NCBI GenBank assembly: GCA_963783315.1 | Contig: CAWAMZ010000036.1 | Coordinates: 19,042 to 83,041 of the forward strand | DNA: 64,000 nt | Source of the DNA: an uncultured Bacteroidales bacterium | Lineage (GTDB): Bacteria > Bacteroidota > Bacteroidia > Bacteroidales > DASQZP01 | Direction: 5' to 3' | Shown here: in pieces, positions 9,085 to 19,461 of the stretch | Position numbering within the stretch: the first letter of the stretch is position 1 | How the letters are laid out: each line of letters begins with the position of its first letter | The notes under the pieces: model-generated | What the model was told of the DNA's origin: nothing | Databases searched by the model: none | What the model saw: the letters and a program-made list of their open reading frames with translations, nothing else | Made by a program: the position numbers and the translations under genes

Positions 9085-9864
9085 TTACATACCATTTTTT
9101 ACATGTTGAATAAAATCTTTTATAGATTTCTGCAGGCTTGCAGTATTGCTGATGGCATTGATAAACGCACTTCCGATAATGGCACCCTGAGCATATTCAC
9201 AAGCAATACGATATGCTTCGTGATTTGAGATTCCAAAACCGATGAGGGCAGGATTCTTCAGATTCATGCTCTGTATTCGGTTGAAATATGCTTTTTGCTG
9301 CTCAGAAATTCCACTGCGGGATCCTGTTATGGAGGCGGAGGAAACCATGTATATAAAACCACTTCCTGTCTGATCAATCAGCCTGATTCTTTCTTCAGAG
9401 GTTTGGGGAGTAATAAGAAAAATATTATGTATATCATGTTGTCTAAACAGGGAGGCGTAATGAGAAGTGTATTCCTGTAGCGGAAGATCCGGCAGAATAA
9501 TTCCGTCAATTCCTGTTTTTTTGCATTCCTGAATGAAAGCTTGCATGCCAAACCTGAGTACAGGATTAAGGTATCCCATCAGGATCAACGGGATATTCAC
9601 CGTTTTACGAATGTCCTTCAACTGGTCAAAAAGTTTATGCAGGCTCATGCCGTTTAACAGTGCCTGATGACTGCATTGCTGAATAACCGGTCCGTCTGCC
9701 ATAGGATCTGAAAAAGGCATGCCAATTTCAATCAGGTCAACTCCGTTTTTTTCGAGTTCCGTGATGATGGTTGCTGTATCATCCAGTTCAGGGTAGCCGG
9801 CAGTAAAATATACAGATAAAATGTTATTTTTTTTCTGTGCAAATAAGTTATCAATTCTGTTCAT
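9085..9864 (-). CDS. trpA: tryptophan synthase alpha chain
   Basis: 259 aa. TrpA-like motifs ([29 protein letters not shown]). 14-nt overlap with trpB. Confidence 0.93.
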
Positions 9865-11047
9865 CGGGCATGTTTTTAATATAAGTTTCCATGTCTTTAT
9901 CTCCTCTTCCTGAGAGGTTTATTACGACGGTTGCTTCGGGTTTAAATTGCATTTTTTCCATGGCAGCCAATGCATGTGCTGATTCAAGAGCAGGAATAAT
10001 CCCTTCTTTGCGGGTAAGAAGGAAGGCAGCATCGAGTGCTTCCTGATCTGTTACATGCAGGAAAGTTCCGCGGCCCGTCTCTTTCAGGTTGGCATGCAGC
10101 GGGCCCACTCCGGGGTAATCCAGTCCTGCAGAGATAGAATAAGGCTCGGTAATCTGGCCGTCTTCGTCCTGCATAAGCATGGTCCGGCTACCGTGAATAA
10201 TTCCGGTATGGCCCAGCACCATTGTAGCAGCCGATTCACCTGTATCAATACCCATACCGGAAGCTTCAACAGCAATCAGTTGCACCTCAGGGCGGTCAAG
10301 ATAATGATAAAAAGCCCCTGCTGCATTGCTTCCTCCCCCGATACAGGCAATAATATGGTCGGGGTAGTCACGGCCGGTCTTTTCTTTAAGCTGCCACATC
10401 ATTTCTTCTGAAATAACAGACTGGAACCGGCTCACCATATCCGGATAAGGATGAGGGCCCACCACTGACCCGATAATATAATGTGTATCTTCAGGATTAT
10501 TGATCCAGTCGCGAATAGCTTCGTTGGTGGCATCCTTCAATGTGCGGTTGCCACTGGTTACGGGTATCACTTCAGCACCAAGCATTTTCATCTTGGATAC
10601 ATTGGGAGCCTGGCGCTTAACATCGGTTTCTCCCATGTAAACAATGCACTTCATTTCCATGAGTGCACATACTGTTGCAGTTGCAACTCCGTGCTGACCA
10701 GCACCGGTTTCGGCAATTATGCGTTGTTTCCCAAGTAATTGTGCAAGTATGATCTGGCCTATTGTGTTGTTAATTTTATGGGCTCCGGTATGATTGAGAT
10801 CTTCTCTTTTCAGAAACACGTTGGTCTGATAATATGCTGACAATCTGTTGGCATAATAAAGAGGAGAGGGTCTGCCCACATAGTCACGGAGCAATAAATT
10901 GAACTGCTTCTTAAAGTCTTCACTTTCCATGATCGGCAAATACTGTGTGCGGAGTTCTTCCACATTCGGATACAACATTTCAGGTATGTAGGCTCCTCCA
11001 TAATTGCCATAGTATCCTTTTTCATCTACATGATAACTCATATTCAT
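9851..11047 (-). CDS. trpB: tryptophan synthase beta chain
   Basis: 398 aa. PLP-lysine motif [11 protein letters not shown] and GGGSNAAG. Confidence 0.95.
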
Positions 11048-11049
11048 CT

Positions 11050-11682
11050 TTATTTTTTAAGTGTTCTCATTTTTTCAAGAAACAAGCTCAGCAATTGTTG
11101 ATTTTTAATCCCGGGCTTTGCTTCAAATTTACTGTTGATATCAATGGCATACAATGCCGGCAGCCGAAGAGACAGAATTTCGTCGGCATCATCAGGGCCT
11201 ATTCCTCCGCTTAAGAAGTAGGGTCGCAGACTGTTAAAATTATTTAGTACCTGCCAGTTAAATTTTCTGCCAGTACCGCCATAACTGCTGCTGCCCGTGT
11301 CAAACAAAAAATAGTCAGCACAGGGGCTGTAAACAGCCGTAACTGCAGGATCAAAATTGTCATCCACTCCAAAGGCTTTGATGATCTCAATACCCGCATT
11401 TTTAATTTTCCGGCAGTATGACGGTGTTTCGGTTCCATGAAGCTGCACCAGGTCGAGTCCATAATTCTTAACCGCTTCAATAACTGCACCTGCAGACGCG
11501 TTAACAAAAACTCCAACATTTTTGATTGTATGACCAGTTGCCCTGAATAATGCAGGATCAGGGTCTTCCCCAACGAACCTTGCAGATTTAGGGTAAAATA
11601 TAAAACCGGCATACTCTACATCCTGTTGAAGCAGGAATGCTGCATCCTGTATTGTGGTGATTCCGCAGACTTTTATCTTCAT
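11050..11682 (-). CDS. trpF: phosphoribosylanthranilate isomerase
   Basis: 210 aa. MKIKVCGIT start and a QLHG motif. Sits between trpC and trpB. Confidence 0.9.
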
Positions 11683-11714
11683 GTCAGCTGTTTATATGGG
11701 TATCAAATAATAAT

Positions 11715-12545
11715 TCAATTATCTTTTTTAAAGTTTTCAAGCTGCCTGATAAAGGCAGCACATGCGTTGGCCGGATTATCTGTTTTCATGAACGTTTCGC
11801 CAATCAGAAATCCCTGAAAACCTGCTTTTTGCAGAGTGACTATGTTGTGTGGGTCACTCAGCCCGCTTTCACTGATCCTGACAAACTCTGCGGGAATGCT
11901 GCCGGATAAAATAACCGACTGTTCAATATCGACACTGAAATCTTTCAGATTCCGGTTATTTACACCAATAACATTGAGATGCTCACATATTTTTTTCAGT
12001 TCGTCTTTTTCATGCACCTCCATTAGTAGTTCCAGACCAAGTGAACGGGCAAAAGCGGCTAACTGTTTTATTTCCTTACTGCTTAGTACAGCCGCAATCA
12101 GCAGGATGGCATCCGCACCTATTGCCTTTGCTTCCAGGATCTGATATTCGTCAATAATAAAATCTTTGCGTAGTACCGGGCAATCGTTGGTTTCCCTCGC
12201 CATGGTCAGGTCCTTGTTTTCTCCGCCAAAAAATCTGTTGTCAGTCAGCACAGAGAGGGCTGAAGCGCCGGCTTTTACATAACCAGAAGTAATTTCTCTT
12301 ACCTGGGCTCCTTCATTAATCATCCCCTTTGAAGGAGACTTTCTCTTAAACTCTGCAATAATCCCTGAGTTACCCTCATGAAGCAGATATTCACTCAGGG
12401 AAAGCGTATTCCGATCCATGTAAATACTTTTTTCAAGGCAGGCGACAGGGTAATCCACTTTATTTTGTGCTACTTCCTGTTTTTTATGCTCAACAATATT
12501 ATCAAGAATGTTAGTCATTTGTATGGGATTTTCATTGCAATTCAA
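11715..12545 (-). CDS. trpC: indole-3-glycerol phosphate synthase
   Basis: 276 aa. IAEFKRKSPSKG and GVNNRNL motifs. Confidence 0.93.
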   Translation of the reverse strand: MNCNENPIQMTNILDNIVEHKKQEVAQNKVDYPVACLEKSIYMDRNTLSLSEYLLHEGNSGIIAEFKRKSPSKGMINEGAQVREITSGYVKAGASALSVLTDNRFFGGENKDLTMARETNDCPVLRKDFIIDEYQILEAKAIGADAILLIAAVLSSKEIKQLAAFARSLGLELLMEVHEKDELKKICEHLNVIGVNNRNLKDFSVDIEQSVILSGSIPAEFVRISESGLSDPHNIVTLQKAGFQGFLIGETFMKTDNPANACAAFIRQLENFKKDN

Positions 12546-13524
12546 TCAATTTCTTAAAGGCTGCCAATGCTTTACCGCTTTTCACGGATTCATCAGCAAT
12601 GCTTACACATTCAGTAAAAGAGCTCCCCGGATGCAGGCAGAAGAGTCCCATGGCTGCATTCCCTACAGCTACGTTGTGCTGTTCAGCAGTAGCCTTGTTC
12701 TTCAGTACGCTGATGAATATTTTTGCGGCTTCTTCAATGGTGGCACCTCCTGCAAGTTTCTCAGGTGAAATTTTATTAAATGAAAGTTCACCGGGTTCTA
12801 CTACCCGCTCTCCCTGATTAGTAATCAGCTTAAAAGCTGAAGTAAGAGACACCTCGTCATAACCGTCCAGGCTGTGGACGATAGCAAAATTTTTTCCGGT
12901 TTGCTGATACAGGTAACTGTACAACCTGGCGAGTTCCAGACTGTATACCCCTACCATCTGATTGCCCGGGAACGAAGGGTTTACCATCGGACCAAGCATA
13001 TTGAAAAATGTTTTTACCCCCAGTTCCCTTCGCACGGGCGCTACATTTTTCATGGCAGGATTGAACAACGGAGCATGCAGAAAGCAGATTCCTGTTTTGT
13101 CCATCTCATTTCGCAGTCTGTCGGGATCATTTTTAAATTTATAACCGAAATATTCCATTACATTGGAAGATCCGCAGGTAGAAGAAACGCCGTAATTGCC
13201 ATGCTTGGCCACCTTGCCTCCTGCTCCGGCCACGATAAAGGAAGCCAGGGTGGAAATATTAAATGTATTTTTGCCATCTCCGCCGGTACCACACAGGTCA
13301 ATGGTGTTAAAATCACTCAGATCCACCGGGATACAGAGATTCAGCAGTGCATCCCGGAAGCCTGATAACTCTTCAACCGTGATTGCACGCATAATATAAA
13401 CGCTAATAAATGAAGCAATTTGCGAATTGTTGTATTTTCCCTGTGCAATATTGGTAAGCACTGACTCAGCTTCTGAGCGGTCGAGTGTTTTATGGTCATA
13501 CAAGTGGTTTAGAATCTCTTTCAT
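12532..13524 (-). CDS. trpD: anthranilate phosphoribosyltransferase
   Basis: 330 aa. CGTGGDGKNTFNIST and KHGN motifs. 14-nt overlap with trpC. Confidence 0.93.
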   Translation of the reverse strand: MKEILNHLYDHKTLDRSEAESVLTNIAQGKYNNSQIASFISVYIMRAITVEELSGFRDALLNLCIPVDLSDFNTIDLCGTGGDGKNTFNISTLASFIVAGAGGKVAKHGNYGVSSTCGSSNVMEYFGYKFKNDPDRLRNEMDKTGICFLHAPLFNPAMKNVAPVRRELGVKTFFNMLGPMVNPSFPGNQMVGVYSLELARLYSYLYQQTGKNFAIVHSLDGYDEVSLTSAFKLITNQGERVVEPGELSFNKISPEKLAGGATIEEAAKIFISVLKNKATAEQHNVAVGNAAMGLFCLHPGSSFTECVSIADESVKSGKALAAFKKLIELQ

Positions 13525-13592
13525 TTCCTGATAGTATTTTAAGTTCGCTTTTTTTAAAATGAATAGTTTTATGAAGATTGTAAATGTTGTTT

Positions 13593-14171
13593 CTATTTCT
13601 TACTGCCAAGCCAGTTTTCAAGTAATTCCCTTCCATGGCTTGTAAGCACCGATTCAGGATGAAATTGTACCCCTTTGAGATCAAAGCTTTTGTGGCTGAT
13701 GCCCATGATCTGTCCCGAAGCATCTTCAGCAGTCAGGTCAAAACAATCCGGCAGGGTGCCCCTGTCTACAATCCAGGAGTGATAGCGACCAGCGGCAAAT
13801 TCTCCGGGCAGCCCAGCGAACAATGTTTCATCAGCTTTTTTAACATAAACAGGAGTGGCAACTCCGTGGAACACTGAATCAAGATTTATCAGTTTTCCTC
13901 CAAATACCTCAGCAATAGCCTGGTGGCCCAGGCAAACACCCAGAATGCTTTTTGTTTGTGCATAACGGCCAATGAGCTTTTTCAACAGACCGGCTTCTTC
14001 CGGAATTCCAGGACCTGGAGAAAGGATGATCTTATCATACCGGTCTATCTCCCCGAGTTGTATCCCGTCATTTCTTATTACATCTACTTTATTGCCGGTG
14101 ATTTGTTCGACTAAGTGCACCAGATTATAGGTAAATGAATCATAATTGTCAAAAACAAGTATTTTGCTCAT
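13593..14171 (-). CDS. trpG: anthranilate synthase component II (glutamine amidotransferase)
   Basis: 192 aa. Class-I GATase catalytic GVCLGHQ, and HPES near the C-terminus. Confidence 0.92.
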   Translation of the reverse strand: MSKILVFDNYDSFTYNLVHLVEQITGNKVDVIRNDGIQLGEIDRYDKIILSPGPGIPEEAGLLKKLIGRYAQTKSILGVCLGHQAIAEVFGGKLINLDSVFHGVATPVYVKKADETLFAGLPGEFAAGRYHSWIVDRGTLPDCFDLTAEDASGQIMGISHKSFDLKGVQFHPESVLTSHGRELLENWLGSKK

Positions 14172-14172
14172 A

Positions 14173-15570
14173 TCAGATTTCTTTAGCTAAATTGATGGCC
14201 GTTTTTAGCGCCATTAATTTATTGTTTACTTCATTCAACTCATTTTCCTCCTCTGAGGCCGCTACAATTCCGGCTCCTGCCTGGTAGAAGAGTGTGTTGT
14301 TCTTACTCAGGAACGACCGGATCATAATGGCATGATTGAAGCTACCATCAAAGCCGGCATATCCAATGCATCCCCCATAAAATCCACGACGGTTCTTTTC
14401 ATATTTGTCAATCAATTCCATGGCTTTGTATTTGGGAGCTCCGGAAAGTGTTCCTGCAGGGAAGGAATCGGCCATCACTTTGATCGTGTTATAATTTTCG
14501 GGTAGTTCACCGGAGACAACTGATACCATGTGGAGTACATGAGAATAGAACTGGATCTCACGGTAGGTGTCAACTTTTACCTTCGTTGCATTTCGGCTCA
14601 GGTCATTACGTGCCAGATCAACCAGCATGACGTGCTCAGCGTTTTCTTTCTTATCGGCCATCAGTTTTTCAGCAAGATCTTTGTCTTCTTCGTCGTTACC
14701 TGTTCTCTTAAATGTCCCGGCAATCGGGTGTATGTAGGCTTTCCCGCTGCGAATTTCGAGCTGGGCTTCAGGGGAAGATCCAAAAATGCGGTAGGTTCCG
14801 TAGTCAAAATAAAACAGGTAGGGAGAGGGGTTGATGGATCTGAGTGTGCGGTATACATTAAAATCGTCCCCGGTATATTGCTGTGAGAATTTACGTGAAA
14901 GGACAATTTGAAAAACATCTCCTCTTTTACAGTGTTCTTTCCCTTTGTTTACCATTTGTTTGTATTCTTCATCGGTAATATTGGAAGTTTCCATGCCTTT
15001 GGATGCAAAAGAATAGGTGGCATAATTGCGGTTGCTTAGCAAAGACCTGATCTCTTCAATCCGGCTTTTTTCTCCTTCAAGCAGGTTTTCCGTAATCGTC
15101 AGGGTGTTTTGAAAATGGTTGACGGCAATTACATACCTGTAGAAATTATAGCGCATTTCAGGAATTTGTTCTTCTTTAAAAGATTCCGCCCTGAGCTTCA
15201 GGCTTTCGAAATGTTCGATTGCGTCATAGGATGTATATCCAAAAACACCATTCACCTGCCCATTCTTTGATGTTATATTAAATGCATTTATAAACTCATC
15301 AAATTTATCAGCTACACTCACCCCGGAAGCTGAATTATTTTGCAGGTTGCCGTCAGGGAAACGTTCAGATATTCGCCCCTGGTTAACCATGAACTCAGCC
15401 AGAGGTTCCAGACAAATATAAGAATAGCTGTCTTTGTTTCCGTGATAATCTGAGCTTTCCAGTAAAAGCGAACCAGGATACAGGTCCCTTACCTTTAGGT
15501 AAATACTTACCGGGGTAATAATATCTGCCAAAATTTTGTGTTCCCGGGTTTCAAAAGTAAATTTTTTCAT
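14173..15570 (-). CDS. trpE: anthranilate synthase component I
   Basis: 465 aa. LLESS feedback-site motif (GSLLLESSDYHG) and a chorismate-binding C-terminal half (GTLSGAPK, GGCIGY). Confidence 0.93.
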   Translation of the reverse strand: MKKFTFETREHKILADIITPVSIYLKVRDLYPGSLLLESSDYHGNKDSYSYICLEPLAEFMVNQGRISERFPDGNLQNNSASGVSVADKFDEFINAFNITSKNGQVNGVFGYTSYDAIEHFESLKLRAESFKEEQIPEMRYNFYRYVIAVNHFQNTLTITENLLEGEKSRIEEIRSLLSNRNYATYSFASKGMETSNITDEEYKQMVNKGKEHCKRGDVFQIVLSRKFSQQYTGDDFNVYRTLRSINPSPYLFYFDYGTYRIFGSSPEAQLEIRSGKAYIHPIAGTFKRTGNDEEDKDLAEKLMADKKENAEHVMLVDLARNDLSRNATKVKVDTYREIQFYSHVLHMVSVVSGELPENYNTIKVMADSFPAGTLSGAPKYKAMELIDKYEKNRRGFYGGCIGYAGFDGSFNHAIMIRSFLSKNNTLFYQAGAGIVAASEEENELNEVNNKLMALKTAINLAKEI

Positions 15571-15600
15571 CTTTATTTTTTTAGATCGGTTAGGTTATTT

Positions 15601-15635
15601 AAAACAAAAAAGGCCTGCCGTGATTCGGCAGACCT
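15601..15635 (-). terminator. intrinsic terminator / candidate trp attenuator
   Basis: Minus-strand RNA reads AGGUCUGCCG-AAUCA-CGGCAGGCCU followed by UUUUUGUUUU. The 10-bp stem has one G.U pair on the minus strand; the same position is a C/A mismatch on the plus strand. The element ends 30 nt before the trpE ATG. Confidence 0.75.
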
Positions 15636-15666
15636 TTATATTATTGCATACAAGCAGGAACTGACA

Positions 15667-15729
15667 TTACTCACGGTATTTGAACATCGTGCAGTGCCAC
15701 CACCAGTTTGTATTTGAATATTGTATCAT
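15667..15729 (-). CDS. trpL: candidate trp leader peptide, 20 codons, MIQYSNTNWWWHCTMFKYRE
   Basis: Hand translation of the minus strand: ATG at 15729 and TAA at 15669-15667. Codons 9-11 are TGG TGG TGG. An A-rich tract precedes the ATG. The ORF lies between clpX and the terminator in front of trpE and is too short for the supplied ORF track. Confidence 0.6.
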   Translation of the reverse strand: MIQYSNTNWWWHCTMFKYRE

Positions 15730-15816
15730 TTTATTTTTCTGATTCTTTTGCTTTAACAGGAACAAAGAAAATAATTATTTATGAAAATAACAAACAACTT
15801 TGTCTTAAATTAATTA

Positions 15817-17037
15817 TCAGGCCACCTTTAGCTTTTTTATGTTTGTTTTATCCATTTTTTCCCTGGCATACTTAAGGGTTATTTCCAATTCCTTAACGTT
15901 TTGTGAGGGTAGTTCAAACATGGCATCCATCATTATTGCTTCACATATCGATCTCAGTCCCCTGGCACCAAGTTTATATTCAATGGACTTATCAACGATG
16001 AATTCCAGCACCTTATCTTCAAAGGTCAGGTTGATCTTATCCATCTTGAAGAGCTTCTTATACTGCTTAATAATTGAATTTTTAGGCTCAGTCAAAATGC
16101 TTCGCAGTGTTTCGCGGTCAAGCGGATTCAGGTATGTGAGAACAGGGAGCCGTCCGATAATTTCAGGGATAAGGCCGAAACTTTTAAGGTCCTGCGGTAC
16201 AATGTACTGTAATAAATTGTCGCGGTTAATCTGATTTTTATGGCGGTCGGAATTATACCCGATTACCTGTGTATTTAACCTGTTGCCAATTTTTCTTTCA
16301 ATACCATCGAAAGCGCCTCCGCAAATAAAGAGGATATTTTTGGTATTAACTGCTATCATCTTCTGGTCAGGATGTTTACGTCCTCCCTGAGGGGGTACGT
16401 TGATCACAGAACCTTCCAGGAGCTTCAGCAATCCCTGCTGAACACCTTCGCCGGATACATCCCGGGTAATTGAAGGGTTATCGCCTTTCCGGGCAATTTT
16501 GTCTATCTCATCAATAAAAACAATTCCTTTTTCTGCTGCTTCAACATTATAATCGGCCACCTGTAACAGGCGGGTCAGGATACTCTCAATGTCTTCACCA
16601 ACATAGCCGGCTTCCGTGAGTACGGTAGCATCAACGATGGTAAAAGGGACATGAAGCATCTTTGCGATTGTGCGTGCAAGCAATGTTTTACCGGTTCCGG
16701 TTTCACCAACCAGGATAATGTTCGATTTTTCAATCTCTATTTCTTCGTCAGTATGCCGGCTTACCTGCATCAGTCTTTTATAGTGGTTGTATACGGCAAC
16801 AGATAAATATTTTTTAGCCTCTTCCTGACCGATGACATACTGGTCAAGGAAACTTTTAATTTCAAGAGGCTTTAACAATTTTAACTGATTAAAATCAAAA
16901 CCTGTTTTGACACGTGTTTCTTCCTGCACAATATCATAAGCCTGCTCAATGCAACTGTCGCATATATGCCCTGATATGCCTGCAATCAGAAGATTAGTGT
17001 CTTTCTTATCTCTGCCGCAAAAGGAACACTTATCCAT
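15817..17037 (-). CDS. clpX: ATP-dependent Clp protease ATP-binding subunit ClpX
   Basis: 406 aa. N-terminal zinc ribbon CSFCGR...CDSC and Walker A GETGTGKT. Confidence 0.95.
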   Translation of the reverse strand: MDKCSFCGRDKKDTNLLIAGISGHICDSCIEQAYDIVQEETRVKTGFDFNQLKLLKPLEIKSFLDQYVIGQEEAKKYLSVAVYNHYKRLMQVSRHTDEEIEIEKSNIILVGETGTGKTLLARTIAKMLHVPFTIVDATVLTEAGYVGEDIESILTRLLQVADYNVEAAEKGIVFIDEIDKIARKGDNPSITRDVSGEGVQQGLLKLLEGSVINVPPQGGRKHPDQKMIAVNTKNILFICGGAFDGIERKIGNRLNTQVIGYNSDRHKNQINRDNLLQYIVPQDLKSFGLIPEIIGRLPVLTYLNPLDRETLRSILTEPKNSIIKQYKKLFKMDKINLTFEDKVLEFIVDKSIEYKLGARGLRSICEAIMMDAMFELPSQNVKELEITLKYAREKMDKTNIKKLKVA

Positions 17038-19161: not shown

Positions 19162-19379
19162 CCGTTTTTACCTTTAATATTATTTACGACCTGTAAAATT
19201 AAGCTTTTTATACAACAACACCCTGCACTATCTCCCATTTTTTGATCAATAAACCAATTGATCCAGTGAGTTTTGTTTGTGTATGAAACAGGGGATAAGC
19301 AGAGGGCTACCTAGTTAAAATTTATGCTGTGCCCGATCTCAAAACAGTAACCGGAGAAATAAAGACCAGGCCACATTTG

Positions 19380-19461
19380 TGCGGATGAAGGGACTCGAAC
19401 CCCCACGCCCGAAGGCACCAGATCCTAAGTCTGGCGCGGCTACCAATTACGCCACATCCGC
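19380..19461 (-). tRNA. tRNA-Leu (anticodon UAG)
   Basis: The reverse complement folds as a cloverleaf. Acceptor stem GCGGATG/CATCCGC, anticodon stem CCAGA/TCTGG with loop CTTAGGA, long variable arm TGCCTTCGGGCG, T-loop GTTCGAGT. CCA is not encoded. Confidence 0.9.

Follow-up and report, generated by a model that had tools for sequence, protein, structure and literature searches.

The 246-nt spacer between clpX and trpE in the window (the whole 64,000-nt stretch of DNA analysed here) very probably (probability about 0.85) carries a ribosome-mediated, Trp-sensing transcription attenuator of the trpEGDCFBA operon, one of the trp-leader class of Bacteroidota (RF01692, broadly defined). The initial annotation had proposed attenuation of the trpL type for this spacer, and the proposal is well supported by comparative evidence on the leader ORF, the terminator and the antiterminator. 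The class itself has been known since 2010 (RF01692), and the window holds a member that goes unrecognised at the curated threshold. The new points are modest: a co-varying antiterminator directed at the terminator apex, a conserved spacing on the scale of a ribosome, and the breadth of the family together with the narrowness of the Rfam model. None of these results overturns existing knowledge. For annotation, the element would explain how the trp operon of this organism is switched.

The leader lies between tig-clpP-clpX upstream and a complete trp operon downstream. The flanking genes are clpX (15817-17037) and trpE (14173-15570), as first annotated, with trpG-D-C-F-B-A following trpE; each of the seven trp ORFs has an NCBIfam match. 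A tRNA-Leu gene (by its anticodon tag) lies at 19379-19461 on the minus strand, directly 5' of tig-clpP-clpX and on the same strand. The coding features are:

9085-15570, minus strand: operon trpE-G-D-C-F-B-A, the predicted target of the attenuator (NCBIfam matches for 7 of 7 ORFs)
15667-15729, minus strand: leader ORF of 20 codons plus TAA, MIQYSNTNWWWHCTMFKYRE, with the ATG at 15729-15727 and the TAA at 15669-15667 (read from the sequence)
15697-15705, minus strand: three tandem Trp codons, TGG TGG TGG, the regulatory codons 9-11 (read from the sequence)

Every coordinate originally given for the 20-codon ORF and for its TGG TGG TGG at codons 9-11 is correct on the minus strand. The ORF had seemed unlisted because the ORF list of the window carries only a TTG-extended version of 32 aa (15667-15765). 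Shuffling the 246-nt spacer produced an ATG-initiated ORF of 8-40 codons with WWW in 2 of 200,000 cases, a chance probability of about 1e-5, and Trp makes up 15% of the leader residues vs 1.3% in the long ORFs of the window. The start region is A-rich and has no Shine-Dalgarno sequence. Other TGGTGGTGG sites in the window (6598, 29626 and 33424) were considered as leaders and rejected, as all of them lie within long ORFs.

An intrinsic terminator separates the leader ORF from the first structural gene, as in an attenuator of the trpL type, and a longer hairpin precedes it. The structural features are:

15609-15637, minus strand: intrinsic terminator hairpin, region 3:4 (12-bp stem in the terminator scan; covariation)
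15611-15635, minus strand: core stem of the terminator, AGGUCUGCCG (15635-15626) paired with CGGCAGGCCU (15620-15611) around the loop AAUCA (15625-15621)
15601-15610, minus strand: U-tract of the terminator, U5GU4 (sequence reading and terminator scan)
15648-15713, minus strand: region 1:2 hairpin, a putative anti-antiterminator and possibly a pause hairpin; both the Trp codons and the stop codon lie inside it (MFE fold and cmscan alignment)

The terminator hairpin begins 31 nt past the leader stop, its U-tract ends 30 nt before the trpE ATG at 15570, and its energy is about -21 kcal/mol. The position, loop and U-tract agree with the initial annotation at all coordinates, and the scan lengthens the stem to 12 bp (15637-15609). 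That the hairpin is built for the direction of the trp transcript also holds, since the single non-Watson-Crick pair of the stem is a U.G on the minus strand and on the plus strand the scan gives nothing better than a 6-bp stem whose T run is poor. The terminator stem covaries strongly in an alignment of 79 unique leaders: 94.4% of its cells are paired, double-sided changes number 166, and no shuffle out of 500 scores as high. The free 190-nt leader folds at -45 kcal/mol (z = -3.7) into the long hairpin (15713-15648) plus the terminator. According to the cmscan alignment to the model structure, the long hairpin is the consensus hairpin of RF01692, and its covariation takes the form of a weak anti-diagonal band in the right place. 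At 15505-15651 (minus strand), across the terminator, Rfam also gives weak matches to RsaD, ncr1015 and Phe_leader that stay below threshold; they are driven by a generic hairpin plus U-tract and were dismissed as not meaningful.

The element is conserved in front of trpE in relatives. TrpE-guided retrieval gave 89 loci (9 from genomes and 80 from metagenomes) with 55-90% TrpE identity, and the closest named TrpE relatives are Draconibacterium, Mariniphaga and Prolixibacteraceae MAGs. In 85 cases, the window and 84 relatives, the region upstream of trpE is long enough to judge, and 84 of these regions, counting the window, have a Trp-rich ATG mini-ORF of 13-25 codons 5' of trpE, nearly always with an intrinsic terminator downstream. 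Conservation of the mini-ORF and its Trp codons and covariation in the stems, both suggested as checks at the outset, are thus present, in 84/85 regions and in the terminator (0/500 shuffles as high). The Trp run is WWW in 52 of the 79 unique leaders and WW, WWWW, WRW or similar in the rest, and TGGTGG is the most conserved block of the leader alignment. The relatives keep an in-frame ATG and stop around the UGG run; the alternative frames have a spanning ORF in only 3/79 and 14/79 leaders. The leader peptide is poorly conserved outside the Trp run. Leader-peptide attenuation needs transcription-translation coupling, and the near-universal presence of the element before trpE therefore argues that coupling operates in Bacteroidota. 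Among the trpE loci with a complete upstream flank, L039 alone lacks both a Trp mini-ORF and a model match; its trpE may be regulated differently or may lie inside an operon.

Homology to other Bacteroidota trpE leaders was also established independently of Rfam. A covariance model, R1, built from 78 relatives with the window excluded, matches the window over its full length at 15732-15604 (82.5 bits, E 4.8e-19), and this is the sole significant match in the 64 kb. The RNAalifold consensus of the 78-sequence alignment contains the terminator helix only, so apart from the terminator R1 mainly models sequence.

Three short boxes would operate the switch. They are:

15688-15696, minus strand: box 1, CACUGCACG, directly 3' of the Trp codons, pairing with box 2 (fold and chimera test)
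15670-15676, minus strand: box 2, CCGUGAG, located where the leader ORF ends, a switch strand that pairs with box 1 or with box 3
15618-15623, minus strand: box 3, UCACGG, the antiterminator partner of box 2 (duplex energy and co-variation)

The initial annotation had likened the layout to E. coli trpL. The terminator and the antiterminator of that comparison stand; the region 1 box after the Trp codons, which completes the 1:2/2:3/3:4 scheme, had been missed. In the fold, CACG of box 1 (15691-15688) pairs with CGUG (15675-15672) within the long hairpin, a 1:2 pairing that would hide region 2 when translation is absent. The same CGUG, as part of CCGUGA (15676-15671), is alternatively complementary to UCACGG (15623-15618). 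Box 3 consists of three loop bases and the first three bases of the terminator 3' arm, and box2:box3 and the terminator stem compete for G15620-G15618. By computation, the antiterminator and the terminator are mutually exclusive, and the antiterminator would be exposed only on stalling. The box2:box3 duplex of the window has a 6-bp core and an energy of -9.7 kcal/mol.

This pairing of CCGUGA with UCACGG had been flagged as only 6 bp long and conjectural; it now proves to be the sole hot spot of leader-terminator co-variation among the 79 leaders. In register-free tests that compare native with chimeric leader/terminator pairings, without correction for phylogenetic relatedness, box2:box3 has a native mean of -9.1 kcal/mol vs -6.4 in chimeras, and 0 of 10000 permutations reach the native value. 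The box1:box2 pairing behaves likewise (-7.9 vs -5.9 kcal/mol, 0/10000), and the energy gained between the whole freed leader and the terminator is -7.4 kcal/mol in native pairings vs -4.4 in chimeras (0/5000). As a negative control, the post-stop spacer was paired with the terminator 5' arm, and here there is no sign of co-evolution (-4.72 vs -4.70 kcal/mol, 4547/10000 permutations), which argues against a simple composition artefact in the chimera tests of these sequences. A zone-free 2D scan, in which the terminator's own stem appears as a positive control, has one leader-terminator hot spot, the stop codon against the loop and the start of the 3' arm (t down to -5.5). It is bounded by leader windows that start -12 to -3 from the stop and terminator windows that start -3 to 0 from the loop centre, and the scan detects no leader signal on the columns of the terminator 5' arm. 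Clades differ by compensatory box 2/box 3 pairs: CCGUGAG/AUCACGG, CCGGAGC/GCUUCGG, UCGGAAGUU/AACUUCCGA and UGUGAACAGCC/GCUGUUCACA. In 68 of the 79 leaders box 2 and box 3 form a helix of 5 bp or more with an energy of -6 kcal/mol or lower. The stop codon and box 2 share bases in about 70% of leaders, and the median box 3 takes 2 nt from the 5' arm, 4 from the loop and 3 from the 3' arm.

The fixed-column covariation of box2:box3 is slight, with 35.9% of cells paired in MAFFT alignment A2, barely above the shuffles and slid controls. MAFFT lets short boxes slip out of register across clades, so this count is uninformative, and for that reason the fixed-column test was replaced by the register-free comparison of native and chimeric pairings.

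Folding of the minus-strand leader, another check put forward at the start, yields the alternative box1:box2 and box2:box3 pairings and a terminator that always forms at equilibrium, with the full hairpin present under every ribosome mask. Thermodynamics alone therefore cannot tell the states apart, and the antiterminator must act kinetically. In the E. coli trp leader the full terminator likewise wins at equilibrium. The terminator 5' arm is transcribed ahead of box 3. When a ribosome is masked at WWW and the transcript ends within the 3' arm, the MFE structure of the window is the antiterminator closed by box2:box3. The same fold is closed by box2:box3 in 6 of 7 genome relatives, and in L001 at one truncation point only.

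The leader likely has its own promoter in the clpX-leader gap, judging from Bacteroidota-type motifs there. The putative elements are:

15791-15794, minus strand: putative -33 element TTTG of the Bacteroidota sigma-A type (predicted from the sequence)
15763-15770, minus strand: putative -7 box TTTCTTTG, with one mismatch to TAnnTTTG (kept in L010)

The putative -7 box lies 20 nt past TTTG and 33 nt before the leader ATG, and the gap has no exact match to the pattern TTTG-N17-23-TAnnTTTG. In L010, whose TrpE is 90% identical, the TTTG-20 nt-TTTCTTTG block is identical and the sequence from the -7 box to the ATG has diverged. Among the relatives, a perfect TAnnTTTG lies within 70 nt 5' of the leader ATG in 44/79, vs 1/79 in the control region. 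In many loci (for example L051, L058, L060, L062 and L082) the perfect TAnnTTTG ends 8-10 nt before the leader ATG. Depending on which ATG is chosen, the leader mRNA of such loci would be nearly leaderless.

These elements suggest the following mechanism, in which the ORF, the terminator, both alternative pairings and the spacing are computed, and from which we infer the promoter, the coupling, the folding kinetics with their folding order, the targeting of the apex and the response to Trp. Transcription probably starts at the promoter in the clpX-leader gap, and the leader would be translated while RNA polymerase is still transcribing it. When Trp is plentiful, the ribosome would reach the stop codon and cover box 2, leaving box 3 free; the 10-12-bp terminator would form and transcription would end 30 nt before trpE. 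If translation is absent, box 2 would be held by box 1 within the long 1:2 hairpin; the terminator would form here too, so that the default state would be off. When charged tRNA-Trp is scarce, the ribosome would stall on WWW with its 3' edge over box 1 and with box 2 exposed. The exposed box 2 would pair (CCGUGA:UCACGG) with the emerging terminator loop and on into the beginning of the 3' arm, the terminator apex would then fail to nucleate, and the polymerase would read through into trpE. A ribosome shields roughly 13-16 nt of mRNA 3' of the decoding site. Counted from the first base of the final Trp codon, box 2 starts after 20-23 nt (IQR), and after 23 nt in the window; this spacing matches the ribosome footprint and would place box 2 just beyond the edge of the stalled ribosome.

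For the Bacteroidota trp leaders as a group, the odds are slightly better than even that they use a non-canonical geometry, in which the strand at the stop codon invades the terminator apex with the loop as a toehold and continues 2-4 bases into the 3' arm, sometimes including the last bases of the 5' arm. The pairing of the stop-codon box with the apex offers a concrete candidate antiterminator that is cleanly testable, since mutations in the loop would leave the terminator stem intact. If the apex geometry is true, the family would be far broader than the Rfam model, with some lineages stacking two units in tandem, and transcription and translation would be tightly coupled in a phylum that starts translation without a Shine-Dalgarno sequence.

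A real attenuator could nevertheless employ an antiterminator other than box2:box3, for example by pairing with the 5' arm as in E. coli trpL or through a stalled ribosome or 1:2 hairpin that alters polymerase pausing. The short core of box2:box3 in the window and the weak fixed-register covariation would fit such an arrangement, as would the MFE of the shortened window transcript, a structure totalling -16.9 kcal/mol in which the post-stop spacer UGUCAGUUCCU is additionally bound to the 5' arm. Against it, the spacer and the 5' arm show no co-evolution, the 2D map has the stop codon and the apex as its only hot spot and no signal on the 5' arm, and most leaders (the 68/79 above) can form box2:box3. 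The extended antiterminator at -16.9 kcal/mol was accordingly rejected as a conserved structure (4547/10000 permutations, no 2D signal), and antitermination by a route other than box2:box3 is improbable. It is far less probable still that the hairpin is a mere terminator of the clpX (clpP-clpX) operon, with the WWW mini-ORF a chance, untranslated ORF and trpE controlled elsewhere. Downstream of the clpX stop (15817) the scan detects no further terminator before the hairpin, so the hairpin very likely also halts read-through from clpX in the window, and the promoter in the gap is only near-consensus. However, clpX lies upstream of the trpE leader in only 5/89 fetched loci, yet the mini-ORF is present in 84/85 usable regions, and the attenuator unit therefore belongs to trpE and not to clpX. 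The rarity of a WWW ORF in shuffled spacers (2/200,000) and the co-variation of the leader with the terminator apex point the same way, and the comparative sequence data effectively refute a role confined to clpX.

Sensing of Trp by a factor instead of the ribosome has an equally slim chance, whether by a TRAP-like protein, by a T-box in which tRNA-Trp reads the UGG run, or by an arrest peptide like TnaC. A tRNA anticodon could in principle read the UGG triplets, and the H, Q or N that follows the Trp run in 50/79 leaders could hint at a constraint on the peptide; the conserved GGCA of the 1:2 stem accounts for the latter bias equally well. In control of the TnaC type, high Trp induces expression, the opposite of what a biosynthetic operon requires. 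Rfam returns no T-box or other riboswitch match at E <= 10, which speaks against the specifier and antiterminator architecture of a T-box, and reading of the leader reveals no array of TRAP repeats. TRAP is described as requiring 9-11 (G/U)AG repeats, vs one GAG and zero UAG in the leader. An in-frame ATG and stop conserved around the UGG run also speak for translation of the run, as ribosome-mediated attenuation would have it.

The element in the window is close to a class already in Rfam. RF01692 ("Bacteroid-trp, Bacteroidete tryptophan peptide leader RNA") matches the spacer over model positions 1-131 with 41.7 bits (E 0.0023 in an 801-nt search), which is below its gathering score of 49 bits. 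Rfam at the gathering threshold accordingly reports a tRNA alone for the whole window, and RF01692 is absent. The features of the class are nevertheless present: the element lies 5' of trpE or trpB in a Bacteroidota genome (here 30 nt upstream of trpE), it has a short ORF with at least two conserved in-frame UGG codons (20 codons, WWW), and a hairpin surrounds the Trp codons and the ORF end (15713-15648 by MFE and model alignment, with weak covariation). The class was predicted in silico in Bacteroidetes by Weinberg et al. 2010 (PMC2864571), who described a "loosely conserved hairpin" and proposed neither an antiterminator nor a scheme of boxes 1, 2 and 3. A 2019 paper on Flavobacterium psychrophilum merely records the presence of the class. 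Searches of the accessible literature found no experimental work on trp attenuation in Bacteroidota, in agreement with the earlier remark that such control had not been characterised experimentally in this lineage, although the class had been predicted in 2010.

The window and RF01692 share the phylum, the position 5' of trpE, and an ORF with tandem UGG codons in a long hairpin that is followed by a terminator. The two differ in extent, as the RF01692 model ends at the 5' arm of the terminator and the window element continues through it. Only 4 of 40 relatives tested pass the gathering score (L035, L058, L060 and L062), and these have the same box architecture as the window. RF01692 at E <= 0.1 over 40 kb gives zero matches on relatives. 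On the sequence comparison, the curated model is narrow and misses the lineage of the window (Prolixibacteraceae/Marinilabiliales-like). This leaves a gap in curation: the window and 36 of 40 related loci fall below the gathering threshold, and the broader model finds the element at almost every trpE locus examined.

The attenuator logic of E. coli trpL (RF00513, Trp_leader) is that of the Yanofsky model, and the window appears to follow the same logic, with tandem Trp codons, a 1:2 hairpin and a 2:3 antiterminator that opposes a 3:4 terminator. As in E. coli, the stop codon lies in or beside region 2, and in the scheme proposed for the window, as in trpL, the default without translation is termination. 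There is no homology in sequence or structure, and RF00513 is absent among the Rfam matches at E <= 10. The two leaders also differ in detail: the window has three Trp codons and E. coli two, the last Trp codon is 9 codons from the stop in the window and 2 in E. coli, and the window leader starts without a Shine-Dalgarno sequence in an A-rich context. The 3' strand of the antiterminator would be the terminator loop and the start of the 3' arm in the window, not the 5' arm as in E. coli trpL.

The trpL/rnTrpL/peTrpL system of Sinorhizobium meliloti resembles the scheme for the window in being a ribosome-dependent Trp attenuator 5' of trpE(G) (PMC6614838, PMC7298713). With ample Trp it sets free a short leader RNA that ends at the terminator, and both this RNA and the peptide act in trans (PMC6614838, PMC7298713). 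The leader peptide of the Bacteroidota family studied here is poorly conserved outside the Trp run.

Twelve trpE loci have two leader units in tandem on the same strand, and the window is not one of them. They are L001 (units at 2196-2331 and 2336-2460), L003, L012, L019, L021, L022, L023, L026, L027, L028, L041 and L076. A Trp-rich mini-ORF and a terminator are found in each unit separately, and the two units lie too close together for a gene to fit in between. The distal unit encodes a distinct conserved peptide, ..NTIWLPWWGL.. or FKSIWLWWGNTFL. The tandem arrangement may constitute a double attenuator gate. At L003:1142 the spacer between the attenuator terminator and trpE is 137 nt, vs about 30 nt in most loci. 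It is filled by short tandem repeats, with CGGATTT and CCTGAAA units 3' of the terminator and GGCTCCCTTC units 5' of the leader.
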